Shown: positions 22,070 to 57,244, counted from the stretch's first letter. The stretch: DNA of 64,000 nt from an uncultured Gammaproteobacteria bacterium (GCA_964515545.1 CAZERI010000001.1:269553-333552); one strand, 5' to 3'. A program made the numbers and translations. The notes: a model not told the origin generated them from the sequence alone.

Positions 22070-23538
<1,469 letters not shown>

Positions 23539-23982: not shown

Positions 23983-24125
23983 CACTTATAAGGAGGTGGC
24001 TTCAATATTAGGTTCAAATCTGGTAAAATAGCATTTCAGCGTATGGATAGTGGCATATAGTAGATAGAAAAATTCATTAGTTTTTCTCCTATTAGCCATA
24101 AGCTCTATGCTAATAGCACGTCTAA

Positions 24126-24198
24126 GGGTTGCTAGTTCATCGGTTAGAACGCTGTCCTGATAAGACAGAGGTGCGTGGTTCGATTCCACGGCAACCCA
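24126..24198 (+). tRNA. tRNA-Ile (anticodon GAT)
   Basis: GGGTTGC/GCAACCC acceptor, GTTC-ATCGGTTA-GAAC D-arm, CTGTC-CTGATAA-GACAG anticodon arm (GAU) and CGTGG-TTCGATT-CCACG T-arm. Discriminator A. Confidence 0.85.
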
Positions 24199-24298
24199 CA
24201 ACACACAACTTACTCATCTCATCGTTTGTTCCTGAGGTTCTATCCTTCAATTTTCCTACACATTTTTTACAGTATTTTAGTTAAATTGTTAGCTTATC

Positions 24299-31195: not shown

Positions 31196-31218
31196 AGAAC
31201 AGTTGTATTGGTTTTTCC

Positions 31219-33165
31219 TTAATCACCAAACTGTACTGATAATTCTCGATCGAAGAGGTTATTATCAAACTGATTGACGTCACCATCATCTGTTAAGTCG
31301 GTAGCGGTTTTCTTATCATTATCGCAAGCAACTGGAGCTAAGTAGTCAGAGTAGCAGTCAATAATCATATTGTAATCGAGGATATCCAATTTATTATCTG
31401 AATTCGTATCGCCTGAAATAAGTGATACTGTCGGTAAGACATTATTTTTATTTGCAGATATCGTAATAAGTCCTGGAATGAGTCTATGCAGATAGTGGCT
31501 GCTGGCTACCTTGAGACTATATTTTCCTGCAGGGAATGTCGTGCCTAAATCAAAGCTACCTTTATAAGAACCGGAAGTTGGGTCGTAGACAATAGTTGAA
31601 TTGATTTGTTTGACTTGAGTATTATTGGTATCAGTAACAAAGATCGTTGCATCATGTGATGTATGCAGCGGGTTCTTATTACTAAGTGTAGAGCTCGTTA
31701 AGTTAGCATTATCTCCAGCACTGCCTATCCCATGAAGAAGGACATTGAGAGAAAGTGTCGTATTTTGGGGAGTATAGTCTGCAGAAATTTGACAGTTGGA
31801 TGCAGAGTTGCCTACATCGCCTGCGTAGGAGGCTCTAATAGTATCGGTGAAGTCTTCAGGACTTGCTGCAGGAACTGAAATTACCACACTAGCTATACCA
31901 TTAGCATTAGTATTTGAGGTGGTGGCAGATAATTGGGAAATAGTATTTCCGCTCCAGGTAATACTTTTGCCTGATAGTGGATTGCCCGCACTATCTTTTA
32001 GTGTCACAGAAAGTGCTTGAGGAGTATTAGTAAGAGTGACAGAAGGTGGGGAACACACAAGACTTGTTGTAATAGGGTGCTGAGTGACCCCAAAGTCCTT
32101 GTCGGATACAGTGTCTCCTTGAGCAACAGTTAGTGACTGATAATCAGGATTCGTAGGGGTGGTAATATCCCAGTTTGTTTGTAGTGTTACTGAGGCCTTG
32201 TAGTTACCATCACAGATTCCGCTAAAAGTATAAGTTCCTTGTGAATTTGTAGTAGTTGTGGCGCTTACCGCATTTGTTGAAGTATTAGTCAGGGTGACTT
32301 TCCAGCCGGAGAGGCCTGTCTCTGATGCGTCTTGTATTTTATTTCTATTATCATCGTTATAAACTGTTCCACTGATGGTACCTTTACCTATCTCTTCAGC
32401 GATCTGCTTATAAATCGCTGTTAATGTAGCTCCATCGGGAGCAAAGTAAAATTTTCCTCCTGTTTGGGTAGCGATATCTATAAGTAATTTATCATTGATA
32501 CTGTCACCAAAACCGATAGTGTAGAAAGCCATGTTGTATTTATTATGGACATCAACTGCAGCTGCAAGGGCTTTTTGATCGGAAAGTGTTTTGTTAGCTG
32601 TTGAGCCTGAAGCAGGTCCGCCAATATACTGCTGGGCACCTCCATCTGTTAGCATGACGGCTATATTTTTGACACCGCCACGTTCTTTCGCTTTAAAGTC
32701 GGCTTCAGCTTTCCTGATAGCACACTCGATACACGTGGACCCATTTGCAGTTAAGTTATTAATTGCGGTTTTAACGTTGGTTAGATTTTGGGTGAGCGAC
32801 TGAACGACCTTAACACTTTCCTCTGAGCTAATAGTGGTGACACTGACTTCGTGAAGAGGAGTCTGGGTACGTTTGGCAAGGATATCTAAGAATGCGCTTG
32901 AGGCTTCTTTAGCTCGCTTCATTCGAGAGGTACTATCAGTATCGCTGGTGGCCTTCGTCATGCTCCCTGACTGATCAAAGATCATCATAGTATCTGTCGG
33001 CTGGTCTGCAGTACATACCTGCTCTGCAGCATGCTGGCGTACATCCTGCTGCTGCTGTCCTAAATAGAGAGTCAGAGGAACTGCTGCTACTATTAATAAG
33101 AGGGTTAAAAGACCGACCATTCGTCTATCTTTCATTATTTTCTGCCACATAGATACATGCTGCAA
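31219..33165 (-). CDS. Secreted modular protein, paralog of 29336-31195: vWA, SdrD-B-like, Ig-like/beta middle region and C-terminal dockerin-type module
   Basis: N-terminal vWA is near-identical in pattern to the downstream paralog ([19 protein letters not shown]...). The C-terminus carries [21 protein letters not shown] and [16 protein letters not shown]. The start may be an internal Met (MKDRR or MVGLL). Confidence 0.7.
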
Positions 33166-33241
33166 AAAGCAGTGCTACTTACAGACTAATAGAGAGGGGT
33201 GGGCTCTGTCAATAAACACTCAGGAAAATTTTTAAGCGTTA

Positions 33242-36200: not shown

Positions 36201-36931
36201 TTTTTTACCTGAAAATTTATAGTTGATTTTCCGCCTGATGTAATAGTAGTGTATTGTGGATTGCTTGATATAAGTGTATAGCCAGAAGCTCCTTTCATAG
36301 AAACTGAATATGATGATCCAACGAGGCCATCAAAAAGGTAATTACCACTGCCATTGGTGCTAGTTGTAGCTGTACTTCCCGTACTGCGGTTAGTTATTGT
36401 TATTCCAACATTTGCTACGCCTGCTGTAACATTCGAAGCTGTGTAATAAACTCTCCCTTCAATGGCTTGGGTTTTGGAGGATGATCCGCCACCGCTATTA
36501 TTACCACCCCCAGTACCTGGTGAAGTTGCATTCTTACTGATAATAAAGTTGACTCTACTTGTACCGCTAGAAAATGTGGTATAGATGTTATTTGACAAGA
36601 TCGTATATCCAGGTATAGGGCTCAGAAAGACTCTGTAGGTCTGTGATCCTGCTGCAGAGAGGCCTCCTATATAATAGCTCCCACTTACCAGTGAGCCTGT
36701 TGCGGTAGAGCCACTACTTGTATTAGTAATTGTTACTGTTCCGCCTCCCGTATAGGCTCCTCCACCAGAAATTGAAACCGATCCTGCGATTACTTTACTT
36801 GCGGCCAATGCTTTGCTATTTGGGTTTGATCCGAGGGGAAAAAGAATAACTGATAGTACTGCTAAAATCAGAGGCAGAACGATACTGCGACTTCGAGTCC
36901 TTCTAAGGATTTCTTTAAGAGCAGCTACCAT
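33242..36931 (-). CDS. Giant secreted protein: N-terminal TM, at least 5 carboxypeptidase-regulatory-like/Cna-B-type beta-sandwich repeats plus other Ig-like repeats, long Pro/Thr/Ser linker and a C-terminal module ~75% identical to that of 29336-31195, ending in the dockerin-type repeats
   Basis: Repeated G(R/K)VYY...GVxxVxVTIxN...T..ttT...G.Y.F.GL..G..Y.V units. The C-terminus carries GDTTNTNSLNILDFNFIADCY and [26 protein letters not shown]. The start was placed at the internal Met (MVAALKEIL..., 36931); the ORF as called extends to 37102. Confidence 0.65.
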   Translation of the reverse strand: MVAALKEILRRTRSRSIVLPLILAVLSVILFPLGSNPNSKALAASKVIAGSVSISGGGAYTGGGTVTITNTSSGSTATGSLVSGSYYIGGLSAAGSQTYRVFLSPIPGYTILSNNIYTTFSSGTSRVNFIISKNATSPGTGGGNNSGGGSSSKTQAIEGRVYYTASNVTAGVANVGITITNRSTGSTATTSTNGSGNYLFDGLVGSSYSVSMKGASGYTLISSNPQYTTITSGGKSTINFQVKKISLPTPTPTPKPSKSIKGLVYTLGSNNVTQGFAGVTVTIKNLDSSATSQQTTNSSGNFNFTGLVGTRYNVSIVGPPGYTVSSNNQTVNLPSNGQGTASFRLTKDTSSKSVTGKVYYQDSQGNSVGVSGVTVKITNTGPTGNGNTTSTTTASTGNYAFSGLAGSKYSVSITVPSGYTSTSANPLSVTLGSNGQGTASFRLTKGATPTPIRNVSVTVKAVTGGSSSSSPVSGATVTICASGANTTGGGNATCPHGTTNSSGQVTLTAGANQAVTITATKGTTLRGSTTTTLGTTAKTVQVVLATTSTSSKANLTIKALATTGTSAPISGATVSVCYVDVQPDASRCQSGSTSSTGERTVSLLTNAPVTITVSKSGFQTATQTTTMTTSNKTITISLTTLVPKVNLTVKVQSPVGFSAPLSQVGVNVCYQRPIIIGGKTIDCEVSGTGNGTQRVFKVQSNTTVEIQAFAVLEPGKNPSNVKKTVTIGSIDRTEILTLPLPSNSSFNSTVKICVYSNGSVATALKDSKISITGYSTVTTDNTGCHSYTFTGGKSISVKAEAEGYAYQTKTIVLSQPSMPTQYIYLDKNTSSNTGVIYGRVKDQKGYSAANVSVTVSRDGSVITETTTNSDGYYITSKLPYGTGYSVSFKAQCFTTNTYWSLSINTGVVGLNRTLERAVNSSCQDPSGEGSTPTNPSPPSNYPDPDDSYPAPEDPGSEVPSVDPDDPYPSVTSAPTPTAKPNATSTPKPTATPKPSSTPKPTITSQVTLIPTATPVVTSTQPTPTFAPGQPTPTPMPNGLTVDVSVFLHGIGASGDTINPNPSPCQENPRDPTKCLSNQNPQRKTRNVMIQFFDETGKEAATSFGTITYNSSKGDFEGSINVKDIPDGDYTISIWSDNYLHQLVPGFKSLTTDQTRLQLPAVALITGDTTNTNSLNILDFNFIADCYSDFLPNFSCDAQEKQRADLNDDGKVNQADINLFLRDFSIQLGD

Positions 36932-37058
36932 AGATACAAGGTACGGAAAATTCCAGCACCTCTTTAAGCGTAATCGAGGTAGGTAGTCGCTGTCAACAAA
37001 GCATCTCAAAAAAGTGCCTTCCCAAACCCTATTTTGTCTGATACACTCTATAGATTGT

Positions 37059-37628
37059 ATGGTCCTATCAGACAGAGACATCAAAAAATATCTCAAATCC
37101 AAGCAAATCGTCGTTAAGCCAGCCCCAAATTTAACAGAACAATTAGGCAGTAATTCACTTGATCTTCGACTCGGTAACAGTTTTCGTATTTTTGATCACA
37201 GTAAATTCCCCTTTATTGATCCTTTTGAAAAGAATACCTCAAGTGATGTCACGCGTGAGATTGTGATTGGGAACAAAGAGCGCTTTATCATCCAACCCGG
37301 AGATTTTGTCCTCGGTACGACAATGGAATTTATTGAGATCCCTGATACACTGGTCGGAAGCTTAGAGGGAAGATCGAGTATTGGTAGACTTGGCGTTATT
37401 ATCCATTCAACTGCAGCAAGTGTAGAGTGTGGTTTTCGAGGACATATCACTTTAGAGCTTGCCAATATGGGGAAAATGCCAGTAGCGCTCTATCCTGGTA
37501 TGCGCATCTGCTCCATATCTTTTGCTGAATTAAGTTCTCCGGCAGAAGTGCCATACTATAAAAAGAAGAATGCCAAATATGTCGGACAGTTAGGCCCAGG
37601 AGAGTCCAAAATCCACAAAGAGCGATGA
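37059..37628 (+). CDS. dcd: dCTP deaminase
   Basis: Collinear with E. coli Dcd: SLDLRLGNSFRIF, GSLEGRSSIGRLGV, VECGFRGHITLEL. Start chosen at MVLSDRDI. The stop overlaps the tmk start (ATGA). Confidence 0.85.
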   Translation: MVLSDRDIKKYLKSKQIVVKPAPNLTEQLGSNSLDLRLGNSFRIFDHSKFPFIDPFEKNTSSDVTREIVIGNKERFIIQPGDFVLGTTMEFIEIPDTLVGSLEGRSSIGRLGVIIHSTAASVECGFRGHITLELANMGKMPVALYPGMRICSISFAELSSPAEVPYYKKKNAKYVGQLGPGESKIHKER

Positions 37629-44710: not shown

Positions 44711-47494
44711 CTATGGGGCGACTTCCTGGAAGATGAAGTTAGCTCCTCGGAGTAAATCTGGAGCATTAAGAATAAAGTCTGGTCGCTCCTTTATGCTGAT
44801 AGAAGGATAATTAATATTGTTAGTACATAAGTCCCTCTGGTTGTCAAAATTCCCGCCATTTTGTCCTGCATTGACTACTACTGCACCTTCAATCGAAAGC
44901 TGCCGGTCCGAAACATTGTTTGGACAGTCGGAAGCTCCATCGATAATAAAGCTTCTATCAGCACTAAAGAAGGCTTGGAGATTTCCCGTTCTTATAGCTG
45001 GAGCCGGACATGCAGGAGTCGTCGTTCCTACACCGCTTGCTACATGAATATCTCCTGATACGATAAAGGTAATTGTTGAGCCATTTGGAGTTGTGATATT
45101 GCCATTAAGCGTAAGATTACCATTTACAAGGATGACGTAATTGCCTGCTGCAGGCACATTAAAGGTATTAAGGGTAAGATTTCCATTTGCGATATAGACA
45201 CCATGCGCAAGGTTGCCAGGCAGCGTGCAGTTATTGAGCTGTGGACATGGAGGAGTAGCTCCGCTTGAAAGACTGGTAGGTGTGATATTGGACTGTGAGA
45301 GTACTGTCTGCATATAGCCATAGGACGTCTTAAGCAGATTGGTTCCAAAGCGCTCGTTATAACTAGAATTACCTACCACCCATCCAGCTGTTGAGGAATC
45401 TCCTCTCCAGAAGTAAGGGTTCACACTGCCTGAGAATATTACTCCTGGAGTAGTAGAGCTGCTAGGAAGTGATGCATACGGCCCCTGGCAGGCAGCGTTA
45501 GGTGCTGGCGGGATAGGGTTATTGAGCCCGCTATCAAATCTGACATCAAGTCCATATGCCTGCCACCATGGTTCTCCGCCTTTGATAGCGAAATTAAGAT
45601 TAAGCATACTCCCCGCGTTGCAGGTAGCATCCGGTGCAGCCGGAGTAGCAGTACAGTTAGCTCCTCCAATACCAACGACTGCGTTATAAGAAGGAGGCGG
45701 GCCATTGCGGGGGTTATTGATGACATAGCCTAGAGGCAGTCCATTGTAGCGGACAGTATATTGTCCATTAATCAGACCAGTGATGAGATATGTTCCATCC
45801 ACATTATTAGCAATGATAGGAGTTGGAGCATTACCGGGTAGATTACTGACTGTTATAGCAGGACTTCCGCCATAGTTATTCTCTCCAGCATCAAATCGAT
45901 TATTGTCATTAGGATCTACAAAGACTTTCCCCGCAATAGTGTATTTAGGGAAGTATTGGATATCCTGTCCAGTTAAGTCAGCCCGAGAGGTAAAATTGGA
46001 TGAAAGAGGATAGGTATTCAGAGCATTATAGTCATTAGTACTAACATTGGTAGTAATTGAATAGGTTCCTGGCTCAAGCGCAGGTGAGGTGTATTGTCCG
46101 TTGGCGTTAGTTACCGCTGTTCCCGAGTCAGTAGGTCCTGTAAAGGTAACAGTGACTCCCGCGAGTGCCATATCGACTCCTGTGTTATAGCTGCTATTTT
46201 TATTCATATCCGCATAGATTCTGCCTTGGATTGAATAACCGACAGAGTAGATAGTCGTTGCCTGACTATTGCCTCTATTCACATCAACGACATTATTGTC
46301 ATAATTTACGAAGACTCTGGCTGTGTATGTTCCTTTGGTAGACACATCCCAGGCAAGATCCCGATTATATCTATCGCATCTATTTCCAGGACTTGGGCGA
46401 CAATAATACTGATATTGGCTTCCTATTCCAAATTCTCCTGTCATCATGGAGACGTTGGTATCTCCGACTGTCCCAGTGGCGACAGCTGTTGGCTCGTCTA
46501 TATAGAACCAGTTATAGGTATGCTGGTCGTTTGGATCTCGCGAAATTGCCTGGGCTGTCCCTGTATTAGCAATCGTTACTTTCGGGAAAATATTTTCTCC
46601 AATACCAAAGGCTGTATGGACAGTCCCTGAGCCATCAGTCAGTTGAAAACTAGGGATGGTTAAGTCAGGGTTACCCACGACATAGCGGAAGGTAGCTTGA
46701 TTGTTGTTGAAATTAGTTGGCTCGTTAGGATATTGGTTGAGGGCATCAACGAAAATTCGAGCGTATTGGGGTAGACCGTCTCCAGCAGCCTGGGAATAGG
46801 AGTTAGGACCCAAAAAGTCAGTATTATTAGTCGCACCAGCTCGTGAATCGAAAGTAAGCGTTGCACCTGAGGTGAAGTCAGTACGGACATGACGAATATA
46901 AGTTGCTGTATAGTCAGCCTGGGCAGTGGTAAAAGCCGTGGATTGATCCTGATAGAGGTTAGAATAGACATTGGTTCCATAGGAAGAGCTCGGAGATAGA
47001 TCTCCGATATTTCTGATCTGCGCGTACCAAAAGATCTCCTCATTAGGGTCAAAGTTATATGATTTATTGCCAGCTGCATCTTTAAGATAAAAATTAGTAG
47101 GAGTAAAGTCAGCAGGTGTGGGATATGGGTAAGGATAAGGATAAGGGTAGGGGTATGGGTAAGGATAGCCATAGGGTGTTCCATACGGCGTACCATAGGG
47201 TGTTCCATAGCCTCCTCCAGGCGTACCATATGGAGTACCATATCCTCCGCCACCACAGCTAGGAGAATTAAAATAGCATGTGTTTTGGTAGTTGCCTTCA
47301 TGACTAAGATCTTCGGGGCACATGCATGCGCCAATAAGTCCTCCACCTTGCGAGGCAGGATAGTAGCAAGGGCCAGGTTGGATAGCTCCAATACAAGCAT
47401 ATGCCTTTATTACATAGGGAGTAATCAGAAGGAGAAAAAAAGTAATAACAAAAGATGATGCATATTTGGTTAAAAATTTACTGCTCATATGCAT
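44711..47494 (-). CDS. Large secreted adhesin-like protein: signal peptide, Cys-rich head, Gly/Tyr/Pro repeat, SdrD-B/Cna-B-like domains and an Asn/Thr-rich C-terminal region
   Basis: N-terminal signal (FVITFFLLLITPYVIKAYA). The repeat is (YGTP)n(YP)n. The B-type domains are GRIYADMN...GVTVTF...ANGQYTSP and GKVFVDPNDNNRFD...DGTYLITGL. 927 aa. Confidence 0.55.
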   Translation of the reverse strand: MHMSSKFLTKYASSFVITFFLLLITPYVIKAYACIGAIQPGPCYYPASQGGGLIGACMCPEDLSHEGNYQNTCYFNSPSCGGGGYGTPYGTPGGGYGTPYGTPYGTPYGYPYPYPYPYPYPYPYPTPADFTPTNFYLKDAAGNKSYNFDPNEEIFWYAQIRNIGDLSPSSSYGTNVYSNLYQDQSTAFTTAQADYTATYIRHVRTDFTSGATLTFDSRAGATNNTDFLGPNSYSQAAGDGLPQYARIFVDALNQYPNEPTNFNNNQATFRYVVGNPDLTIPSFQLTDGSGTVHTAFGIGENIFPKVTIANTGTAQAISRDPNDQHTYNWFYIDEPTAVATGTVGDTNVSMMTGEFGIGSQYQYYCRPSPGNRCDRYNRDLAWDVSTKGTYTARVFVNYDNNVVDVNRGNSQATTIYSVGYSIQGRIYADMNKNSSYNTGVDMALAGVTVTFTGPTDSGTAVTNANGQYTSPALEPGTYSITTNVSTNDYNALNTYPLSSNFTSRADLTGQDIQYFPKYTIAGKVFVDPNDNNRFDAGENNYGGSPAITVSNLPGNAPTPIIANNVDGTYLITGLINGQYTVRYNGLPLGYVINNPRNGPPPSYNAVVGIGGANCTATPAAPDATCNAGSMLNLNFAIKGGEPWWQAYGLDVRFDSGLNNPIPPAPNAACQGPYASLPSSSTTPGVIFSGSVNPYFWRGDSSTAGWVVGNSSYNERFGTNLLKTSYGYMQTVLSQSNITPTSLSSGATPPCPQLNNCTLPGNLAHGVYIANGNLTLNTFNVPAAGNYVILVNGNLTLNGNITTPNGSTITFIVSGDIHVASGVGTTTPACPAPAIRTGNLQAFFSADRSFIIDGASDCPNNVSDRQLSIEGAVVVNAGQNGGNFDNQRDLCTNNINYPSISIKERPDFILNAPDLLRGANFIFQEVAP
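47104..47262 (-). repeat. Coding tandem micro-repeat (GTPY/YP units: GTPYGTPGGGYGTPYGTPYGTPYGYPYPYPYPYPYPYPYP)
   Basis: Visible as ggatatgggtaaggataaggataagggtaggggtatgggtaaggatagccatagggtgttccatacgg on the plus strand. Confidence 0.8.
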
Positions 47495-48124: not shown

Positions 48125-48153
48125 AAAAACCCCGCCTTGTTGGGGGCGGGGCT
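48125..48153 (-). terminator. GC-rich rho-independent terminator (bidirectional hairpin) at the left edge of the high-GC island
   Basis: Minus strand reads GCCCCGCC-CCCAACAAG-GCGGGG followed by TTTTT. It lies just downstream of the stop of the minus-strand gene 48185-49003. Confidence 0.6.
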
Positions 48154-48184
48154 TTCGTCTCTGTCTCGCGTGAGCGAGGTTGAG

Positions 48185-49003
48185 TTACTTTGTGATGGTC
48201 AGCGTTGTGAAGACGCCGACCAGCGTTTCGGTTTCGGATTGTCCCCCGGAGGGGACGCCGGCGATGAGGTATGTCCCCTCATCCATGCCCATGAGGGCGA
48301 TGGTTTGGGATTGCCCAGCCGGTATCATGGCAACAGTGAGCGGGTCGTTGACCGCGTCCCGTCCCGTGATAGTCGCCGTCAGAGCGTCAGGAGTCGTGCC
48401 ATCGGGAACGCGCAGAAGTACCACGCGATGTGTGATGGTGCCCGTGTTGGTAAGTGTGACCAAGACGACGTCGTGTTCGACGAGTGGCTTGCGCCGTGTC
48501 GAGATTGAGTCATCACTCATTTTGATGGTTAGCTTGGTCGACGTAAGTCCGTCAGGGACGGTCAGGTCGTCCAGTATGGTGATGCCGTTGATCATCGACG
48601 TATCTGAAGTCAGTGCGAATGCCGTGTTGGTGAACGAATATTTTCCCCAAAAGCCTTTGAGGGCTACGGGGACAACAACATTGCCGTATTGGTCGATGGT
48701 GATGTCCTCGGTTTGGAGAATCTTACCGCCGACGGCGTAAAATGCCTCTTCTAGGCCGTAAAAGACCTGCTGCTGCAGGTCTGGCGTGAGCATTTCCCAC
48801 GCACGATGCCGGACATCCGGCTTGGATGAGCCAGCTCGTTTCAGGAACAAGGTCAGTGTTGAGGTCGCCTGCGAGGCGACCTCAGCAGGGGCGAGATTCG
48901 TTGCCGGTGATCCTGCATCCATAGCGCGAGCCACAGAAAACGACGACACGAACGAAAGTGAAAATGCGATGGCCACGACAGTGGCCACGATCCGACGGAA
49001 CAT
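48185..49003 (-). CDS. Hypothetical secreted protein encoded in the high-GC island
   Basis: Start at MFRRIVATVVAIAFSLSFVSSFSVARA (a Sec signal) is preceded by AGGAGA 8 nt upstream. GC3-rich codon usage is unlike the rest of the window. The extended ORF start at 49108 was rejected. Confidence 0.5.
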   Translation of the reverse strand: MFRRIVATVVAIAFSLSFVSSFSVARAMDAGSPATNLAPAEVASQATSTLTLFLKRAGSSKPDVRHRAWEMLTPDLQQQVFYGLEEAFYAVGGKILQTEDITIDQYGNVVVPVALKGFWGKYSFTNTAFALTSDTSMINGITILDDLTVPDGLTSTKLTIKMSDDSISTRRKPLVEHDVVLVTLTNTGTITHRVVLLRVPDGTTPDALTATITGRDAVNDPLTVAMIPAGQSQTIALMGMDEGTYLIAGVPSGGQSETETLVGVFTTLTITK

Positions 49004-49059
49004 TATGTTTTCTCCTTTGCCCGTCTTTCCGGGCTGTCGTACTGAACAAAATTGTTCAA

Positions 49060-49140
49060 GATGGAAAGCTACCGGTAGGGCGGGACAAGGTGACCGGTAG
49101 CTTGGCACTTAGGAGATGCTAAGCACCAAGCTGCCGGTCA
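49060..49140. promoter_or_regulatory. Cluster of palindromic operator-like sites (AGCTACCGGTAG; GACCGGTAGCTTGGCACTTAGG-AGAT-GCTAAGCACCAAGCTGCCGGTC) upstream of the island's secreted-protein gene
   Basis: CTACCGGTAG is a perfect 10-bp palindrome. A second ACCGGTAGCT copy and a 19-bp imperfect inverted repeat lie within 70 bp. Confidence 0.4.
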
Positions 49141-49494
49141 GAGGGAGAAAGTATTGAAGTAACTCATAGGGAGACGATCTGAATAGAAGGCTGCTTTGTG
49201 GGTAGGTAAGCTTTATATCGCAAATGAGATAAGGCTAAAGCTACAGAGGGAAAGAGGCTTCTGTCCAGATAACTCCCTATGGAAAAATAGGCTGTTAAAG
49301 AGCAGTGAGATACTCTAACATATATCCTATAGTCTGTCAAGTAAAAACAGATAAATCAGAATTAGCCTCAGTCTAGATCAGACTAGGAAGGTTGTCAAGT
49401 TCAAGGTGTTTTGGGAATAAAAGATAGAGTGTTTGAGGGGAAAAGTGAGGAAAGTTGGGATGCGCCCCCGCCGAGTCTGACTCGGCGGAGGGCG

Positions 49495-49526
49495 CGAAAG
49501 AAAAAACGTAGGGTGGAAAGGCCACC
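49495..49526 (-). terminator. Rho-independent terminator for the Tat-signal gene (GGGTGG-CCTTT-CCACCC + TACGTTTTTTCTTT)
   Basis: A second GC-rich hairpin (GCGCCCTCCGCCGAGTC-AGA-CTCGGCGGGGGCGC) lies immediately distal. Confidence 0.55.
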
Positions 49527-49538
49527 CACCTTGGTTGG

Positions 49539-49844
49539 TCACCGGCTGTTGAGCTCCGCGGGGAGCTCGACGATCATGCCGGTGTCCCGCACGGAGCGGG
49601 TGCTTTCATCGATCTCGCGATGCGTCGCGGTATCGATGGTGAAGGCGGAAACGACGCCGAGCGTCCACACCCCGTTGGGGTGGTAGACGAGCGTGTGCCC
49701 GATTTCCTTCACACTGGCGTTTTCCGCGGATGCGGAATTCCCCGCCACGTTGGCAAGGACGACAGCGCCAGCAGCGCCAGCAGCGAGCTTGGCTCCGAGG
49801 CCTAGGAACGAACGACGGTTGACCGAATTGGACGTGGTGTCCAT
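49539..49844 (-). CDS. Small exported protein with twin-arginine (Tat) signal peptide, encoded in the high-GC island
   Basis: MDTTSNSVNRRSFLGLGAKLAAGAAGAVVLANVAGNSASA carries the S-R-R-x-F-L motif plus an h-region plus AxA. 101 aa, high-GC codon usage. Confidence 0.5.
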   Translation of the reverse strand: MDTTSNSVNRRSFLGLGAKLAAGAAGAVVLANVAGNSASAENASVKEIGHTLVYHPNGVWTLGVVSAFTIDTATHREIDESTRSVRDTGMIVELPAELNSR

Positions 49845-50374
49845 TGTGTTCCCCTTTCATAGGGATGAAACGATCGGACTTAGATGTCCAGTCAGCCCGC
49901 GCGTGCGAGCATGCCCCGTCCGCATGGGCTGTTGACTGTGACTTACAAGAGACAGAGAATCTCCTCTAAGCCACAGTCATTAGCTGTGTGCGGAATATAC
50001 GTTATTTTCTTTTAAAGATCATCTTCGCTACATTTAGTCATTCGCGAACGAAAGACAAACATAATGAAGATCAGAGCGTACTATAGCACAACCTATAGCA
50101 TTTGTCAAGTATATAGGTCTAATTGAGGATGAGCCAGCCTCGACAAAAGGGCTAATTTTAATACGAAGTCGGGGGGAAAAAGAGAGAAAAAGCAGTGAGA
50201 AAGGAGAAAATAGATGGTGAGCTGCTGTCTCTTGCATAGGACGTATTACCTCCTGAGTAAAGGTATAGGATGAAGTCCGGCGTAAAGAAATACTGGTTTT
50301 TTATTTTGTGTCATAGCATCCTTATTTCTAGACTATAGCACATTTTGTTAAGAATTGAGTAAAGAAAGAAAGTG

Positions 50375-51631
50375 TTATCCATTTTTATGGACAGCTTCTG
50401 ATATTTCCTTCAGACACCACTCGGAATATTTTTTATCTTTTATTTGCCCGCAGTATTTCCCTCTCGCGTTGGGGTCATTCTCCCACGAAGCCACGACACG
50501 GCCTATATGTGAAAAACATTGTTTTTGATCTTCCCTAATAATAGCAGTACAGAAATTGGTAAGCCTATCAACTTTCCCAACATACCGCGTTGCAAGAGAA
50601 CTCACGACACCTATGTTGCAGATACTGCGGTATTCAGAGGTAGGCATGAGTGAGCAGTTGTGACTCATGACTTTAACATCACTTGTTAAGCCTACCTGTC
50701 CACCTCCAATAATCTGAATACAGCCATCCTGATACTCTAAAGGAACCTTGAGGCAGAGGTCGGCAGTAGCTTTCGCATCATAGTGGGTAATAATGCTGAA
50801 ATAAGAGCTTTGGTACTCGTAGCAGAGTTTGAGATACTGGGTCGAAAGAGTATTACAAGGGTAGAGGGGATCAGTAGGACGCATCGTCTTCTCAGAGACT
50901 GAGGTAGCTGTCGAACTGGATGAGTTTTCCATAAAAACACCACTATAGCAGTGTTCTCTATTCGACACCCCAGATAATGTGTCACAAAGCGTGAGAGAAG
51001 GGATAAGGTCGTTATTAGTTATATACATGGCTGCATGTCCTAGTCCATGTTCACATTCTGCAAAGACTAAGGGGCTTAGTGAGTCTTTGTGACAAATTGA
51101 AGTGAAGGTTTTTTTGATACTTTCACCTGAGAGGTTATGATCATGTTCCTTTAAATACTCTTCAACTACTCCATGATAGCATCCTCCCTCACAGGTCGAG
51201 TTACAGCTCATGAGTGTGGTGGGTAGATTTTGAGATGTTTTGTATTCACTCCTGCCTAAGTAATGAGTTACCTGATGGCATCTGGCATAGACAGGCGGAG
51301 AGGATTCATTCGTGGCTAAAAGATCGAGAGAATCAGGTAGGGAAAAGGCTGCTTGAAGGTTATCAGCTACTTTCTGATAACAGGCGTCAGTTCCTCCTGA
51401 TGCTGTGCATGCTGCCATAAGGGACTGGATATATGCATTTTTATCTTCATTTTTTTGGTACGTATGGAGCACTGGAGGGCTTTGGCCTCTCTGGGAGGAA
51501 TTACCCAAAGAGAAGTAGTTCTCTACAGCTGAATCCTGATGGAGAAAAAATAAAAGGAAAAGAGCATTTGAAATAAGAAGAACGCAAATTCCTATGATAA
51601 GGATATGAGATTTTTTAATAGATTTTCTCAT
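50375..51631 (-). CDS. Secreted Cys/His-rich protein, paralog family member A (unknown function)
   Basis: N-terminal TM/signal (ILIIGICVLLISNALFLLFFL). The motifs are CEGGCYHGVVEEY, CEHGLGHAAMY, CYSGVFMEN and DPLYPCNTL. Start set at the internal Met (MRKSIKK) that abuts the upstream paralog's stop. Confidence 0.55.
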   Translation of the reverse strand: MRKSIKKSHILIIGICVLLISNALFLLFFLHQDSAVENYFSLGNSSQRGQSPPVLHTYQKNEDKNAYIQSLMAACTASGGTDACYQKVADNLQAAFSLPDSLDLLATNESSPPVYARCHQVTHYLGRSEYKTSQNLPTTLMSCNSTCEGGCYHGVVEEYLKEHDHNLSGESIKKTFTSICHKDSLSPLVFAECEHGLGHAAMYITNNDLIPSLTLCDTLSGVSNREHCYSGVFMENSSSSTATSVSEKTMRPTDPLYPCNTLSTQYLKLCYEYQSSYFSIITHYDAKATADLCLKVPLEYQDGCIQIIGGGQVGLTSDVKVMSHNCSLMPTSEYRSICNIGVVSSLATRYVGKVDRLTNFCTAIIREDQKQCFSHIGRVVASWENDPNARGKYCGQIKDKKYSEWCLKEISEAVHKNG

Positions 51632-52671
51632 TACGTGCGTTTGTAATTTTTTTGGATACTGGTGATATAAGTATGACAAGCTTCTTTATCTGTACCACTA
51701 AGTGAATCACAGATAAGGGAGGAGTTCTCCTGCCAGTCCTGCATATCCTGAAATATGAGTTCGCCTGCTGCAGCTGATTTGCATTGATACTCAAATTCTT
51801 TATCATGCATACTCTCACACTTAGAGATGATTTTTTCTGCATTACCCTCTGAGAGATAGACTGTCTGAAAACCTAGAGCTGTATAACAGGCTATCTTAAG
51901 ATCACGAACTGATGATTTTTGACAGGCCTTTGCTACGTCGTCGTATGATTTCTGAAATCTGTTCATCAGAACTGCTGGCTGGTTACGACCGCAGGGATAG
52001 GTATATTTAGGCTCAACTGTGTTACAAGGGTAGAGAGGATCTGAGGCTTTATAAAAAGTATCTAATGCATCTCGGGAAAATTCCATAAAGACGCCGTCAT
52101 AACAAAATTGGGTTGCACCTTCAGGCAGCTTTTCGCATGTCTTAAGAGCCTCTTTCAAGTCAGTATTTTTGAAATAACTAGCTATCCCATGTCCTATTCC
52201 GTGGATACAGCTCGCGTATGGCCCTGAACCGCTTTTTCCTACTTGCTGACAGGCTTTTTCGGCATCTTGCAGAGAAGAAAGATCAGTACGAAAAGCTCGA
52301 TCAAGTAGCCCATGATAGCAGCCAAAAGCAAAGTCAGCCGTACAAAGAGTAATACCTATGAGTCCTTTTTTCTCAAAGATGAGCTGTCCGACATAATGAG
52401 CATAGTCATGTGCCTCCAGCTGTTTGGAATTATCTTTACCATAGGTATCAATAACGTTTTGCCAGGCAGCTTCCACTCCGCTCTCATCTGCAATTTTTTT
52501 AATAGCGTTATACTCTTGGGTATTTCCGATTGCACTTTTTTCGGAGGTAGGCTTTAATGTATCTTTAGGAGCAGGTGGTTTAGTGGATGTTATGAGAATG
52601 AGGCTGCTACTGACGAGGCTTAAGATAACTACCAGGATGATAAAGGAATTCTTGTGTATTTTAATTTTCAT
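51631..52671 (-). CDS. Secreted Cys/His-rich protein, paralog family member B
   Basis: Signal (IILVVILSLVSSSLILI). The motifs are FGCYHGLLDRAF, CIHGIGHGIASYF, CYDGVFMEFS and DPLYPCNTV. Start set at MKIKIH (52671); the extended ORF reaches 52785. Confidence 0.55.
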   Translation of the reverse strand: MKIKIHKNSFIILVVILSLVSSSLILITSTKPPAPKDTLKPTSEKSAIGNTQEYNAIKKIADESGVEAAWQNVIDTYGKDNSKQLEAHDYAHYVGQLIFEKKGLIGITLCTADFAFGCYHGLLDRAFRTDLSSLQDAEKACQQVGKSGSGPYASCIHGIGHGIASYFKNTDLKEALKTCEKLPEGATQFCYDGVFMEFSRDALDTFYKASDPLYPCNTVEPKYTYPCGRNQPAVLMNRFQKSYDDVAKACQKSSVRDLKIACYTALGFQTVYLSEGNAEKIISKCESMHDKEFEYQCKSAAAGELIFQDMQDWQENSSLICDSLSGTDKEACHTYITSIQKNYKRT

Positions 52672-52696
52672 AAGCTTTGTATTAGTATAATAGTAC

Positions 52697-53860
52697 ATGA
52701 TGATAAAAAAAATCAGCCATTTTTTCAAATTGCACCTTCGCTTTCTCTTAGTTGTCCTCTTAGTAATCAATATTGGAATTATCATTACTTTCAGCTGGCG
52801 CTTGATCGAGACATCAAAAGATACAGCTGAATTGGCAACTTCTGCTCAGGCTAAAGAAATAGTAGGTATTAAGTCTACAGCTAACTCAACGCTTCAAGCC
52901 ACCCTATATCGGCAATTAATTGAGAGGGTAGGGCCAACTCAGGCTCAGGAGGATCTTTATCACTCAGGACTGCCATTTGACGGTCAGACACATCTTATCA
53001 ACCATTCTGTTGGTGACTGGCTTTATGGCAAATATGGCACGAAAGGACTTGCGTACTGTAAGGATTATTTCTTATCCTCTTGCTATCATGGCTTTTTGAT
53101 CCGATTTATAGCGGATAAAGGGATAGATGATATGGGTGAGGTGATGAAGGGGTGTTGGCAGATAGGAAGGGCTACTGCCTCACAATGTGCTCATGGAATA
53201 GGCCATGGGCTTTTGGCGTGGGATGGTTATAAAAATTTACCTGAGGCATTAGCTGATTGTGATAAAGTGGCTGACCTTTCATCAAATTTTCCCATCTATA
53301 ACTGTTATGATGGCGTCTTTATGGAAAATAACTGGGCAGTCCACAATGGAGAACCGTCACCAGATAGATGGGTAAAGGAATCTGATCCTACCTATCCTTG
53401 TTATGACGAGAGGATAGCTGAAAAATATAGGAAGGGATGTTGGTCTAATCAGCCTCAAGTCATGTATAAAATTTTTGGTGGGGACGTTACTAAAGTTGCA
53501 AAAGAGTGTGAGAATATTAAGGCTAAAGAGTATATTGATACCTGTTTTGACTCCCTGGCTCGTCAAATAAATCCTGTAGCTCAAGGAGATATAAAAAAAG
53601 TCTTTGATCTCTGTAATAAGATGCCAGTGGGCTGGAAAAATCCATGTGTCAACTCTAATGTGGGCGCTTTCTTTTCAGTAGGTGATCGTGAGCTTTCTTT
53701 CGTACTTTGTCAGATGATTCCTGAGAGTGGTGTTAAGGGGTGCTATGAGACACTTCAGCAGAAAATTAACTCTTATACGACTAACCTTGAAGAGAGAACT
53801 GATCTCTGTAAGAAAGTTCCTGCTCTATTTAGATCCGAAGCTTACTGTCCTTCTACTTAG
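52697..53860 (+). CDS. Secreted Cys/His-rich protein, paralog family member C
   Basis: Signal/TM (LLVVLLVINIGIIITF). The motifs are SSCYHGFLIRFI, CAHGIGHGLLAWDG, CYDGVFMENNW and DPTYPCYD. TATAAT at 52686-52691 lies only 5 nt before the ATG, so the transcript may be leaderless. Confidence 0.55.
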   Translation: MMIKKISHFFKLHLRFLLVVLLVINIGIIITFSWRLIETSKDTAELATSAQAKEIVGIKSTANSTLQATLYRQLIERVGPTQAQEDLYHSGLPFDGQTHLINHSVGDWLYGKYGTKGLAYCKDYFLSSCYHGFLIRFIADKGIDDMGEVMKGCWQIGRATASQCAHGIGHGLLAWDGYKNLPEALADCDKVADLSSNFPIYNCYDGVFMENNWAVHNGEPSPDRWVKESDPTYPCYDERIAEKYRKGCWSNQPQVMYKIFGGDVTKVAKECENIKAKEYIDTCFDSLARQINPVAQGDIKKVFDLCNKMPVGWKNPCVNSNVGAFFSVGDRELSFVLCQMIPESGVKGCYETLQQKINSYTTNLEERTDLCKKVPALFRSEAYCPST

Positions 53861-54353
53861 GTACATAAAGAATTCCTGAGGCCTCTTTTTTCCCGCTGCA
53901 GCCAATTCCGATAATTGAAGGGGTTCCTTCAATGAATGAAAGATCAGTTGTTATAGAGGCTTGTGCTTCAATTCTGAGAGGTTCCTGCCTGGCTAGCGTT
54001 ATATAGGTAGTGGTCTTTCCATTGTTTTTAAAGGTAATTGTAGCTGTTTTTTCGACTCTAATAATACGAGGAGATAACACACAATTATCTATCTCAATTG
54101 TAGTATCACCTACAGCAATCTGTGAGACTTTATCTTGATAAGCTTTATATTCATTTTTATTCCACGACTTGTTAGCTGACTGTAAAATTTGTGTGACAAT
54201 AGGTGAAGTCTGTTGATTGGGATAAATGAGGGAAGAGAGTGCGGGGTAGTAAAAAAAAGCTGCAACCCCGCCAAGTATGAGGTCAAGTATCAGTAAGAAT
54301 AAAAAAATGGTACGGAGGAGATGTGTACTTACCAATTTAGCAAAGGAGAGCAT
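53853..54353 (-). CDS. Hypothetical membrane-anchored protein (166 aa)
   Basis: An N-terminal TM helix (LILDLILGGVAAFFYY), then a beta-rich domain. Unassigned. Confidence 0.35.
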   Translation of the reverse strand: MLSFAKLVSTHLLRTIFLFLLILDLILGGVAAFFYYPALSSLIYPNQQTSPIVTQILQSANKSWNKNEYKAYQDKVSQIAVGDTTIEIDNCVLSPRIIRVEKTATITFKNNGKTTTYITLARQEPLRIEAQASITTDLSFIEGTPSIIGIGCSGKKEASGILYVPK

Positions 54354-54427: not shown

Positions 54428-55924
54428 ATGAGTAGGATTAAGAAAAAATATCTCATTTTTCTCATAGTTCTATTGCTCCTTATAGATATTGTTGGAGGAT
54501 TAGGCTGGTATATAGTCAATAAAAGTGACTATTTCAAAAAAGCTAAAAAACCTAATGTTATTCTTATTTCCATTGATACATTACGGCCCGACCACTTAAA
54601 AACTTACGGATATCCAAAAAATACGTCTCCTAATATTACTGCTTGGGCTAAGGAGAATGCCTACATTATGCAAAATGCCTATACATCAGTTCCTATAACC
54701 TATCCTTCATTTACCACTCTTATGACAGGTATTTCTCCCTTTGAGACACATATCTACAACAATGGTATGGTAGGAAAAGATGAAAATAATAAATTTGTTA
54801 TTTTTCCTAATCCAGGATTTAATTCAATCTCTCAGACAGCTCCAACTATTGCTTCGACTCTCCGAAGTAAAGGGTACACAACTGCGTCATTTATTGAAAA
54901 CTACGCTTTGCGAAATGACGGAACTAATCTAAGTCAGGGCTTTGATACCTATCAGGTAGCGGGAGAAAGTCGTGATACAACAAATGTCACCGATAAAGCT
55001 CTCAAATGGATGCAGACCTTTGGCCAGAGTGATACTCCTTTTTTCCTGTGGGTACATTTTTTAGACCCACATGAGACCTTTACTCCGCAGAAAGAAAATG
55101 CCTGCAGATTTAGTTTGTCTTACTGCAGGATTATTAATCAAAGAGGCATAGAAGAGTTGGCAAAAGATGCAAAAGTTCAGTCAGGCTGTCATCTTACTCC
55201 TTTATCCCATGATCAGATTGGGATTCAAGAGACACTTTATGATGGAGAAATTTATCAGACAGATAATTCTGTTGGGAAGCTCCTATCATTTATAAAGAAA
55301 AATGATCTTGATAAAAATTCAATTGTTATTCTTTATAGTGATCATGGTGAAGGTTTTGACCACAACTATTATTTTGCCCATCCGAATGTCTTGTATGAAT
55401 CGACAGTCAAGATAATGATGATGATCTCACTTCCTGGCATAAAGGCTGGTGGTAAAAAGATAGTAACTCCTGTTACGAATGCAGATGTCTATCCAACTCT
55501 GATGTCACTTCTTGGTCTATCGTCCCAGAAAAATACAGCTTCTTTTGCCCCTCTCCTAGCCAAAGATAATAAGGAGGGAAAAGACCCCTCACCAAGAACT
55601 CCTATTTTTTATATTGATCAGAATGCCAGTAAATTTGCTGTGAGAAAGGGAGACTATAAATACATCTATACCATAGCGGAAAGATCAAATAAGTGTCTTG
55701 CCCAACAGACGGAAGAGTTATATAACATCAATTCTGATCCTCATGAGACAAAAAATCTTGCGACTCAGATGAGTTCAGTGAAGGAGAGCTTAAAGTCATT
55801 ATTACTTGAGCATTTGGAAAAAACAAAAATAGTCCCTACAGAAAATCCCGAACCTACTGGTATTCGCCCTTCTACAAAACAAGAAGAAGAGGTCCTAAAA
55901 TCTATTAGAGATTTGGGATATTAG
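54428..55924 (+). CDS. Sulfatase / alkaline-phosphatase-superfamily protein, membrane-anchored
   Basis: N-terminal TM helix. ISIDTLRPDHLKTYGY is the metal-binding DxLR.D motif. VHFLDPHETF and SDHGEGF are typical sulfatase/LtaS/EptA motifs. Confidence 0.7.
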   Translation: MSRIKKKYLIFLIVLLLLIDIVGGLGWYIVNKSDYFKKAKKPNVILISIDTLRPDHLKTYGYPKNTSPNITAWAKENAYIMQNAYTSVPITYPSFTTLMTGISPFETHIYNNGMVGKDENNKFVIFPNPGFNSISQTAPTIASTLRSKGYTTASFIENYALRNDGTNLSQGFDTYQVAGESRDTTNVTDKALKWMQTFGQSDTPFFLWVHFLDPHETFTPQKENACRFSLSYCRIINQRGIEELAKDAKVQSGCHLTPLSHDQIGIQETLYDGEIYQTDNSVGKLLSFIKKNDLDKNSIVILYSDHGEGFDHNYYFAHPNVLYESTVKIMMMISLPGIKAGGKKIVTPVTNADVYPTLMSLLGLSSQKNTASFAPLLAKDNKEGKDPSPRTPIFYIDQNASKFAVRKGDYKYIYTIAERSNKCLAQQTEELYNINSDPHETKNLATQMSSVKESLKSLLLEHLEKTKIVPTENPEPTGIRPSTKQEEEVLKSIRDLGY

Positions 55925-57244
55925 CTAGTTATGTGGCATAAAGCTATTGTAATAAAGAGGCTTAATACTCTCAAAGAGAGAGAATGCTCCTGTATGGACG
56001 GGAACAGGTAGTTTCTCTGGCCAGTTGATATCAGACACAGCGTATCTACGGGCCTTAAATAAGAAGTTGTTAGGGAAGTAGCCTGTCATATCAGTTGTGT
56101 AAGGGCTTAAGAAATCCCAGACTACTTTTTTATCCTCCGTTACCTCGAAGATATGTCCTTTTGGCCCGTCAGTAATAAGTGTGTTGCCATTTGGCAGTCG
56201 CTGTGCTCCTCCCACAATAGGAGCAAAGAAACGGACTTTATCTATGACACCCTGCCCACCGTCAAATTGCCAGACTATCTTATTGGTCTTGGGATTTATT
56301 TCCACAACTCTGCTGCCAAAAGAGGGAAAAGGATTAGGGTCTCTTGCAAAGCCATTATCAAAGACTAAAATATTTCCGTTTGATAGCAGTGTGGGATCAT
56401 GCTGAGTATTAAGCATGTCCTTAGGTGATCGCCAGATAATCTCACCATCACTTTTCCGAATTATAAATACTTCATTTAGCGATCTCATGCTGACAATGAA
56501 TCCTTCAGTGCCGTCAATGGGGTTATGAGATGCGTAGGAGAGTCCGTTGGTATAGGTCCAGGCGAACTGGGGCATTGAGCTGCCTAAAAGATCCTGCGCA
56601 GGATCTAAGTGTTCGTAAGAGTGCCAAGACCAGACTACTTTTCCCTCTCTATTTATCTCAACTAAATTATCTGAAAATACAGCTCCATTGAGAGTAGTAT
56701 GAGGGACTCCTCCTTTAATCTGGTTAGCTATTTCCTGGGGAGTCTGCTCCCACAATGAGAGGAGAATATTACCATTAGGTAAATCGATAAAGTCATGATG
56801 CATAGCTTCATTTTTATATTCCCAGACTACCTTTGAGTTCCAGTCCAGCTCCTGTATTGTTCCGGTATTGCCTCCGGGAGGAAGAGGGTGGCTATAGGTG
56901 GGTGCTTCCATGACTACCAGTAAATTACCGTTTTTCCTCAGCTGTGAATAGAGAGGCTGTTTATTTGTTGTCCACGTATGAATCTTATTGCCTAGCAGAT
57001 CGAGAAGGTAGATCTCGCCTTTAAAGTGAGGGTCTGCATTGGCTATTCGATTATAAGGAGAAATTAATGTATACCCGGGGGAGACATTTTCAAGGTTAAG
57101 GATAGGGGATGTGTGGAAGCTGCTGGAGGTATTGCTGAATGGTCTTACGAGAAAAATATAACCGAGGATATAGAGGAGGAGTAGACAACAGATTGCATAA
57201 CTAAAAAGGGGAAGTATTTTTAATTGCTTTTGGTTGGTGGACAT
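55925..57244 (-). CDS. Arylsulfotransferase (ASST)-like beta-propeller protein, membrane-anchored
   Basis: N-terminal TM helix. Repeated NGN(L/I)L blades (NGNLLVV, NGNILLS, NGNILVF, NGNTLIT) with the W/D patterns of ASST-type propellers. The assignment is by pattern only. Confidence 0.45.
   Translation of the reverse strand: MSTNQKQLKILPLFSYAICCLLLLYILGYIFLVRPFSNTSSSFHTSPILNLENVSPGYTLISPYNRIANADPHFKGEIYLLDLLGNKIHTWTTNKQPLYSQLRKNGNLLVVMEAPTYSHPLPPGGNTGTIQELDWNSKVVWEYKNEAMHHDFIDLPNGNILLSLWEQTPQEIANQIKGGVPHTTLNGAVFSDNLVEINREGKVVWSWHSYEHLDPAQDLLGSSMPQFAWTYTNGLSYASHNPIDGTEGFIVSMRSLNEVFIIRKSDGEIIWRSPKDMLNTQHDPTLLSNGNILVFDNGFARDPNPFPSFGSRVVEINPKTNKIVWQFDGGQGVIDKVRFFAPIVGGAQRLPNGNTLITDGPKGHIFEVTEDKKVVWDFLSPYTTDMTGYFPNNFLFKARRYAVSDINWPEKLPVPVHTGAFSLFESIKPLYYNSFMPHN

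Follow-up and report, generated by a model that had tools for sequence, protein, structure and literature searches.

Three paralogous genes and their products

The DNA analyzed here is a 64,000-nucleotide stretch (the window; GCA_964515545.1, CAZERI010000001.1:269553-333552) that is labelled as an uncultured Gammaproteobacteria bacterium and whose host we read as a bacterium of the Candidate Phyla Radiation (CPR, or Patescibacteria). We focus on three adjacent genes, designated A, B and C, that occupy positions 50,375 to 53,860 and encode Cys- and His-rich proteins. The three genes and the N-terminal membrane anchors predicted for their products are as follows.

50375..51631, minus strand: gene A, A-type, 418 aa, with an alternative TTG start at 51679 and a profile match at E 2.8e-88
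51548-51604, minus strand: putative N-terminal membrane anchor of A (hydropathy and a Lys/Arg-rich N-terminus)
51631..52671, minus strand: gene B, B-type, 346 aa
52588-52644, minus strand: putative N-terminal membrane anchor of B (hydropathy and a Lys/Arg-rich N-terminus)
52697..53860, plus strand: gene C, C-type, 387 aa
52736..52792, plus strand: putative N-terminal membrane anchor of C, residues 14-32 (hydropathy; helix 3-46 in the AlphaFold2 model)

When genes were called independently on other assemblies of this organism, the same products of 418, 346 and 387 aa were obtained. The TAA stop codon of B overlaps the ATG of A (TAATG), and the two genes are therefore probably translated as a coupled pair. 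Genes B and C are divergent, with only 25 nt (52672-52696) between their start codons. A perfect TATAAT is found within this gap at 52686-52691, ending 5 nt ahead of the ATG of C; its position and the short gap suggest that the mRNA of C may be leaderless or nearly so, and that the promoters may overlap the neighboring coding sequence. The output of a promoter and terminator scan did not differ from that obtained with shuffled sequence.

The original prediction, made from this sequence alone, described three secreted paralogs that share a strictly conserved series of motifs. The paralogy is confirmed by BLASTP (3e-18 for A-B, 3e-18 for A-C and 7e-35 for B-C, at 22-29% identity), and 44 columns are invariant in a three-way alignment. 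At this level of amino-acid identity the paralogs are saturated at synonymous sites. Based on a motif search, all three proteins contain C-x7-CYHG, C-x-HG-x-GH[GA], CY-x-GVFME and DP-x-YPC; the four motifs are thus as predicted, except that the spacing in the first is seven residues and not six. Residue conservation across the wider family was counted over 457 unique domain instances. The conservation of the motifs is far above chance, given that the same residues are kept in 96-100% of these domains, which come from hundreds of genomes.

Each of the three proteins has one N-terminal hydrophobic stretch (19 aa, mean Kyte-Doolittle value 2.7-2.9) that is preceded by three or four Lys or Arg residues, and no second comparable stretch was found in A, B or C by the hydropathy scan. 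A single hydrophobic stretch placed after Lys/Arg residues fits an anchor with its N-terminus inside the cell, or an uncleaved signal, and would leave the Cys-rich domain outside. This agrees with the N-terminal signal or anchor that was predicted for each protein.

A large family without annotation

The proteins had been described as members of an uncharacterized family, and the searches leave that description standing. Scanning A, B and C against Pfam and NCBIfam returned noise only, no PDB chain was matched by profiles built from alignments of 3, 45 and 72 sequences, and a full-text literature search for the motif strings produced nothing relevant. HMM and profile searches with the three proteins thus gave no assignment to a known family.

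The family itself is large. Using C as the query, a word-indexed search retrieved 535 proteins, mostly from Patescibacteria, all of them named 'hypothetical' and none with a Pfam domain. An exhaustive profile search retrieved 5846 cluster representatives (50% identity) at E<=1e-3, and 4116 at 1e-10, with up to seven copies of the domain in single proteins. A scan of species-representative genomes identified 77 loci, most of which are from CPR lineages. The CPR lineages that carry the family include Levy-, Davies-, Gottesman-, Nomura- and Zambryskibacteria, Paceibacterota and Saccharimonadales; distant members (~25% identity) occur in Gemmatimonadaceae, Longimicrobium, Solirubrobacterales and Limnocylindrales. 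Some metagenome-assembled genomes that carry the family are labelled archaea, and the neighboring genes in L028 (GatB, DUF5667, a fumarate reductase-like protein and malic enzyme) did not settle the label. Between two and seven family genes lie within ±10 kb of each other in at least 45 of 79 loci, which is an undercount because the open reading frame (ORF) filter dropped overlapping genes such as B. We conclude that A, B and C belong to a large undescribed family whose helical-repeat fold class is known. What is new in the family is an invariant His-rich site and an obligate-looking partnership with a cupredoxin that lacks Cys.

One copy is found in an isolate, the cultivated methanotroph Methylocystis rosea SV97 (L043:9995-11263, NZ_KB889963.1). 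This single copy is 38% identical to C and lies much nearer to the CPR sequences than do the remaining non-CPR members; horizontal transfer is therefore possible. Its neighbors, an acyl-CoA dehydrogenase and an ABC-2 transporter, give no functional clue. M. rosea SV97 is an experimentally tractable host in which the family could be studied.

A predicted solenoid of helical hairpins

The AlphaFold2 model of C (pLDDT 93, pTM 0.82) is all-alpha. A long N-terminal helix is followed by ~17 helices and one small hairpin. The 16 Cys residues of C form eight sequence-adjacent pairs (121/129, 153/164, 188/203, 235/248, 271/283, 306/317, 338/349 and 371/384), with 7-14 residues between the members of a pair and a period of ~31-47 residues.

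We cut the family alignment into units of ~33 residues (~31-37) and compared them profile against profile using hhalign. Many of the units align in register, with probabilities of 95.9% for U5-U6, 96.2% for U5-U7, 95.6% for U6-U7, 94.7% for U2-U5, 90.7% for U3-U6, 91.1% for U4-U7 and 79.6% for U1-U2. Based on these comparisons, we read the domain as at least seven tandem helical units of ~33 residues.

Across the 457 domains the Cys residues are 94-100% conserved, and where they are lost they tend to be lost together: Cys121 and Cys129 are both absent in 25 domains, compared with 3 in which one is absent, and the corresponding counts for 271/283 are 7 and 3. The further Cys pairs that were noted at the outset are thus a regular feature of the protein, eight in C. 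The combination of an all-alpha model, units in register and adjacent Cys pairs that disappear together indicates a solenoid of helical hairpins, each probably stapled by one disulfide. A Foldseek search with the model of C returned only generic ARM, TPR and Sel1 repeats at TM-scores of ~0.2, and from this we conclude that there is no close solved fold.

An invariant His, Met and Glu cluster in the first units

A second set of conserved residues is superimposed on the repeat. It comprises five His, a Met and a Glu, and is located as follows in the three genes.

52991..53326, plus strand: cluster in C (H99, H103, G106, C121/C129, H131, C153/C164, H166, G169, H170, C188/C203, F208, M209, E210)
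52081..52410, minus strand: cluster in B (H88, H92, H120, H157, H161, M196, E197)
50927..51277, minus strand: cluster in A (H119, H123, H153, H195, H199, M234, E235)

Using the numbering of C, H99 is present in all 457 domains, H103 in 455, H131 in 453, H166 in 454 and H170 in 456. M209 is kept in 448, E210 in 446 and F208 in 436 of the 457. The conservation of the cluster equals or exceeds that of the structural Cys, despite an overall identity between subtypes of 20-25%. Four consecutive long helices of the model hold the cluster (HxxxH at 99-103, CYHG at 129-132, HGxGH at 166-170 and GVFME at 206-210), and there is an invariant Gly near each of the four motifs. The residue two positions after the second Cys of a unit is His in units 1 and 2, is Asp in only 57% of domains in unit 3 (D205, 260/457), and is variable in later units. 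Because the His, Met and Glu residues are confined to the first units and the equivalent later positions are not conserved, we interpret the cluster as one local functional site, situated in the N-terminal third of the protein's solenoid, and not as a feature of the repeat. A regular-expression search of A, B and C found neither the CxxCH motif of c-type cytochromes nor the HExxH motif of zinc peptidases.

The repeat architecture is also what would be expected of a metal-free surface scaffold. By this account, the protein would be a Sel1/TPR-like solenoid that binds the giant protein rich in Cys and Tyr/Pro, pili, a cell-wall polymer or the host cell, and its conserved His, Gly, Met and Glu would serve packing or line a fixed peptide-binding groove. 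The internal repeats and the restriction of structural matches to ARM, TPR and Sel1 proteins are consistent with this, as is the concatenation of up to seven domains, which is typical of adhesin-like proteins. However, binding surfaces normally diverge between paralogs, whereas here seven residues of polar or ligand type are 97-100% invariant at 20-25% identity, and in the first repeats only. We therefore regard a scaffold as an unlikely explanation of the family, although one that deserves serious weight.

The partner is an atypical cupredoxin

A Pfam scan of 60 longer family members identified Cupredoxin_1 in 21 (best E 1.1e-18) and the plastocyanin/azurin family in 2, in addition to one protein with a polysaccharide deacetylase domain and one with FG-GAP. 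When a profile of the ~95-residue cupredoxin module was used, the module was found in 83 of 438 family proteins. Counted by locus, it is fused to a family protein in 48 of 79 and encoded by a stand-alone gene in 7. If only loci of at least 12 kb are considered, 37 of 55 have the module or a small cupredoxin-like protein, and the 18 without are mostly those of non-CPR members.

Matches of the module profile to PDB chains of amicyanin (1.8e-7) and of the C-terminal cupredoxin of a NirK-type protein (1.2e-9) indicate that the fused module is a true cupredoxin. The relationship to type 1 blue copper proteins (amicyanin, plastocyanin, the NirK domain) thus concerns the partner module only, and the module differs from them in its ligands. 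In the alignment, Asp77 takes the place of amicyanin's blue-copper Cys92, and the residues at amicyanin His95 and Met98 vary; the His-Cys-His-Met set of type 1 sites is absent. The module instead has new invariant motifs, WPAS-x2-H-P-x-H and H-D-H. As the ligand set is replaced, we conclude from the alignment that the partner module is not a canonical electron-transfer blue copper site.

Stand-alone versions of the module are abundant in CPR genomes (2284 matches, named 'plastocyanin' by JGI). Three of the four stand-alone module genes that we sampled on long contigs adjoin family genes; among those sampled, one shows translational coupling with a family gene and another lies ahead of four tandem paralogs. 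Fusion to, and neighborhood with, the cupredoxin constitute the strongest functional clue available, and suggest physical cooperation between the helical domain and a His-rich cupredoxin that lacks Cys. A metal-free scaffold leaves the repeated and specific fusion to such a module unexplained.

In thousands of small CPR proteins named 'plastocyanin' or 'cupredoxin domain-containing', Asp occupies the blue-copper Cys position and the WPAS-HPxH/HDH residues are invariant. Judged by these residues, the Asp-type CPR 'plastocyanins' are unlikely to be classical electron carriers. CPR 'plastocyanin' genes have been invoked as electron donors to NirK (PMC5581439, PMC12931201); these genes may be of the Cys-less type.

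At the locus itself, the gene that follows C on the opposite strand encodes a relative of this partner.

53853..54353, minus strand: small cupredoxin-like protein of 166 aa with a membrane anchor; its gene is convergent with C, and the two overlap by 8 nt

The Pfam match of this protein to Cupredoxin_1 is weak (E 0.16), and hhalign aligns it with the profile of the fused cupredoxins at 70.8% (E 3.8e-5). Almost all of its Foldseek matches are cupredoxins (EfeO 7wgu at 3.9e-4, the Bacillus anthracis Cupredoxin_1 protein 4hci, amicyanin and FtrB), as obtained with a low-confidence model (pLDDT 58) that is poor because the homolog search gave only three sequences. The protein has Cys152 at the blue-copper Cys position, Tyr in place of the relatives' His, and no C-terminal His or Met ligands. 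Together these results point to a degenerate cupredoxin with a cupredoxin-like fold. Because Tyr replaces His and the C-terminal ligands are gone, it probably does not form a metal site of the usual kind. Homologs of the 166-aa protein are found at the same position in nine other loci.

Comparison with known systems

The family resembles the Helicobacter Hcp proteins (HcpB and HcpC) and human COA7 in that all reside in an oxidizing compartment and consist of tandem helix-turn-helix repeats with one Cys pair per repeat. The tandem alpha/alpha repeat of ~34-36 residues that characterizes Sel1-like repeat (SLR) proteins is found here, based on the all-alpha model and hhalign probabilities of 80-96%. 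In contrast to SLR proteins, the family has the invariant His5/Met/Glu cluster, a membrane anchor and fusions to cupredoxins. At the sequence level, no match to Sel1 (PF08238) was found in A, B or C at E<=1, and no SLR chain (Hcp, COA7 or other) appeared in the PDB profile searches at E<=10. Membership of the SLR proteins through COA7 was considered and rejected, as the hhalign probability is 0.45%. The Foldseek match of the C model to the SLR structure 4bwr is marginal (E 0.046, TM-score 0.18).

The likeness to COA7 extends to a possible function, in which the family would be a heme protein with His and Met as axial ligands, acting as a redox factor that matures or reduces the cupredoxin or a Cys-rich surface protein. 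In COX2, the CuA domain adopts a cupredoxin fold. COA7 consists of repeats of 30-36 residues with Cys pairs 7-10 residues apart that form one disulfide within each repeat, binds heme via His and Met, and acts on the assembly of the CuA site of COX2 (PMC8892353). The same architecture of repeats and Cys pairs, and invariant His and Met beside conserved Gly, are found in our family. Against this, the sequence comparison with COA7 fails as described, there is no sequence relation to Hcp, and five invariant His exceed the needs of an axial pair. To our knowledge, CPR bacteria also usually lack heme synthesis and respiratory chains. We consider a COA7-like heme protein improbable.

A second resemblance is to EfeO and FtrB. 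EfeO, a component of the EfeUOB iron uptake system, combines a cupredoxin ('Cup') domain with a helical, M75/imelysin-like metal-binding domain. In the fusion proteins of relatives, an extracytoplasmic Cupredoxin_1 domain similarly precedes a domain that is entirely helical and has conserved metal-ligand residues. The family differs from EfeO in that its helical domain is a disulfide-stapled repeat and not an imelysin bundle, and in that it lacks the HxxE motif context. PMC9174327 and PMC3143127 discuss the cupredoxin and M75 domains of EfeO-family proteins. Peptidase_M75/imelysin was not matched in any of our Pfam scans, and EfeO 7wgu is not among the top 50 Foldseek matches of the C model. 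No EfeU/Ftr1 or EfeB (DyP) was noticed among the most frequent neighbor families of the loci, although no search aimed at them was made. EfeO is the nearest analog in architecture and Hcp/COA7 the nearest in structure. Because sequence membership fails in both cases, they are treated here as resemblances in possible working and not as classifications.

Subtypes and gene neighborhood

The three genes had been interpreted as a threefold amplification in a minimal genome. Comparison with other loci does not support this. Nine loci (L010, L011, L040, L042, L049, L056, L057, L064 and L066) encode cupredoxin-B-A proteins of 831-851 aa, in which a cupredoxin (~25-120) is followed by a first domain (~130-495) that is 39-43% identical to full-length B and a second domain (~475-850) that is 41-49% identical to A. 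In the window, the order of B followed by A, together with the stop/start overlap, corresponds to this layout split into two genes, with the cupredoxin absent. B is 54-55% identical to two cupredoxin-B proteins (P0236 and L008). C-type is the best conserved subtype, with orthologs that are 57-72% identical across genomes. Since A and B match domains 2 and 1 of fusion proteins of ~835 aa in nine other genomes, and since C has such orthologs, the sequences identify A, B and C as ancient distinct subtypes and not as products of recent amplification. Other concatenations are also found: cupredoxin-B (28), cupredoxin-C (12), cupredoxin-B-C (9), B-C (6) and A-C (6).

A recurrent cassette in CPR of the Microgenomates type consists of a C-type gene, a small membrane protein of 75-135 aa, a secreted protein of 800-940 aa and cupredoxin-B(-A). 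The large secreted protein has repeated four-Cys modules and long YYTP-type repeats of Tyr, Pro and Thr, and is found in 19 loci (e.g., L042:10595-13258); no Pfam family covers the repeat proteins of these other loci. The window has a large surface protein of its own, different from that of the 19 loci.

44711..47494, minus strand: surface protein of 927 aa, Cys-rich at the N-terminus and containing a low-complexity run of YGTP/YP (Pfam SdrD_B, 1.2e-10)

Syntenic homologs of this protein adjoin family genes in L007 and L008. The window shares with these two loci the order 927-aa surface protein, B or cupredoxin-B, C and small cupredoxin-like gene, with rpsB, tsf and frr further on. It is possible, on weak support, that the 927-aa protein is a member of the cassette. 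The large proteins with Cys-rich modules and Tyr/Pro repeats could be partners or substrates of the family. Type IV pilus genes occur in ~10 family loci. These pilus genes and the large surface proteins (19 loci and a further 4) count in favor of the scaffold explanation.

In at least six loci of Gemmatimonadaceae (L053, L054, L060, L061, L062 and L082; ~9900-12400 of the 20-kb loci), the gene order is glnA, the family gene and a convergent Nramp transporter (PF01566, 4.6e-18). In L071, a gene for a DUF4142 (ferritin-like) protein abuts the family gene.

On the other side of the cupredoxin-like gene, the window encodes two proteins that suggested, in the original prediction, extracellular processing of sulfated or glycan substrates.

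54428-55924, plus strand: sulfatase-like gene with an N-terminal anchor (PF00884 Sulfatase, 1e-40)
55925-57244, minus strand: arylsulfotransferase-like propeller (Pfam Arylsulfotrans, 1e-22)

If this hint were correct, the family would be an extracellular enzyme or binding protein that acts on such substrates together with these two neighbors. Both Pfam matches are real, and 1 of 60 family members is fused to a polysaccharide deacetylase. However, no homolog of either gene was found in the 79 other family loci. The two genes occur between the cupredoxin-like gene and rpsB in this lineage only; L007 and L008 have other genes, or none, at this position. In addition, the 'sulfatase' has T-Y-P-S-F where 2qzu and 7oz8 have S-S-P-A-R and S-T-P-A-R, and thus lacks the C/S-x-P-x-R motif of sulfatases. 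Its alignment suggests that it is probably an enzyme of the alkaline phosphatase superfamily with a Thr nucleophile (LtaS/EptA-like chemistry) and not a sulfatase. For these reasons the hint is unsupported, and we consider a role of the family in sulfated or glycan substrate processing very improbable.

Other features of the window

Directly downstream of A is an island of high GC content at 48150-50000 (~1.9 kb, 52-63% GC compared with ~40% for the genome). Its minus-strand ORFs, at 48185-49003/49108 (with a signal peptide) and 49539-49844 (with a twin-arginine-like N-terminus, RRSFLG), have no Pfam match. An independent assembly (L001) contains the island as well, which makes acquired DNA, rather than a chimera, the probable explanation. 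A GC-rich ORF of 272 aa downstream of A was tried as a candidate cupredoxin and rejected (hhalign 0.2% against both cupredoxin profiles).

A complete 16S rRNA gene followed by genes for tRNA-Cys and tRNA-Ile is found at 22069-23535 (plus strand) and 23910-24199 (plus strand). No 23S rRNA gene occurs in the remaining 40 kb of the window, and the rRNA genes thus appear to be unlinked. Three consecutive large ORFs of 619, 648 and 1286 aa lie at 29336-37102 on the minus strand. A group Pfam scan of 33 ORFs of the window reported CarboxypepD_reg (3 members), SdrD_B (3) and VWA (2) without assignment to individual ORFs. Our guess is that the three large ORFs carry these domains and form another surface or adhesin-like block of the kind typical of episymbiotic CPR.

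A possible metal site at the cell surface

Our preferred explanation, which we hold tentatively and with somewhat less than even confidence, is that the five His, the Met and the Glu form a metal or metal-cofactor site in a disulfide-stapled solenoid; at the cell surface, the solenoid would function together with a cupredoxin partner to capture metal or carry out redox chemistry. The metal center of the original prediction is thus kept as the best reading, although based on His, and it gains indirect support from the cupredoxin fusions; the Nramp transporter gene beside the family gene in Gemmatimonadaceae also counts in its favor. In this model, an N-terminal helix would tether each of A, B and C to the outer face of the membrane, and the ectodomain would be a solenoid of about eight hairpins of ~33 residues, with one disulfide each. 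The HxxxH, CYHG, HGxGH and GVFME motifs of the first three or four hairpins would form the site. Copper would be the most likely metal, because the family has a cupredoxin partner and because His and Met are the usual ligand set of extracytoplasmic copper proteins, being characteristic of CopC, PcoC, CusF and PHM-type sites. The family would act with the atypical Asp-for-Cys cupredoxin (with its H, H and H-D-H residues) and also with further copies of its own domain. These components are joined in one polypeptide in many genomes (cupredoxin-B-A, cupredoxin-B-C), and here they are distributed over the B-A operon, C and the degenerate cupredoxin-like gene. The role in metal capture or redox chemistry would be based on an arrangement comparable to that of EfeO.

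Several observations weigh against a metal site. The usual role of helical repeat proteins is that of a binding scaffold. Among the genes of the window, none for copper handling (CopA, CopZ, NirK) was seen, nor were any found among those neighbor genes of the other loci that are annotated or were read by eye. The 64-kb window contains no cupredoxin of the WPAS-HDH type, none of A, B and C is itself fused to a cupredoxin, and from the adjacent cupredoxin-like protein the His ligands found in relatives are gone. The Nramp synteny occurs within a single bacterial family, where it may reflect an inherited order of genes. Instead of acting as ligands, F208 and M209 could belong to the core. What the analysis shows is the homology, the topology signals of a membrane anchor, the helical repeats, the pairwise behavior of the Cys, the extreme conservation of the His/Met/Glu set and the link to cupredoxins by fusion and neighborhood. 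The disulfides, the closeness of the His residues in space, the binding of a metal, which metal it is and the role in the cell are inferred.

A more specific version of a metal site is that the family represents a new class of extracytoplasmic metalloprotein, with a multi-His copper center on a disulfide-stapled solenoid that is completed or served, across an interface between domains, by a Cys-less 'His4Asp' cupredoxin and that functions as a surface oxidase or in metal capture in CPR bacteria. We regard this as quite unlikely in its full form. Within it, the center might be binuclear (HxxxH plus His; HxxxH plus Met/Glu), and the adjacent giant Tyr/Pro-rich surface proteins would perhaps be modified.

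Implications for CPR biology

CPR bacteria account for a large share of bacterial diversity. They live in attachment to other cells, and no function is known for the majority of the proteins on their surface. The family described here often occurs in two to seven copies per locus in genomes of ~1 Mb. If its members bind nothing, they would join Hcp and COA7 as a third lineage of disulfide-stapled helical repeat proteins, and a very populous one. If they are a new class of metalloprotein with a Cys-less partner, many of the CPR 'plastocyanins' would not be electron carriers, and the 'plastocyanin' genes of these bacteria would be read differently. If the family is metal-binding, it would constitute an unrecognized surface system for metal handling or redox chemistry in organisms that are believed to have no respiratory chains.

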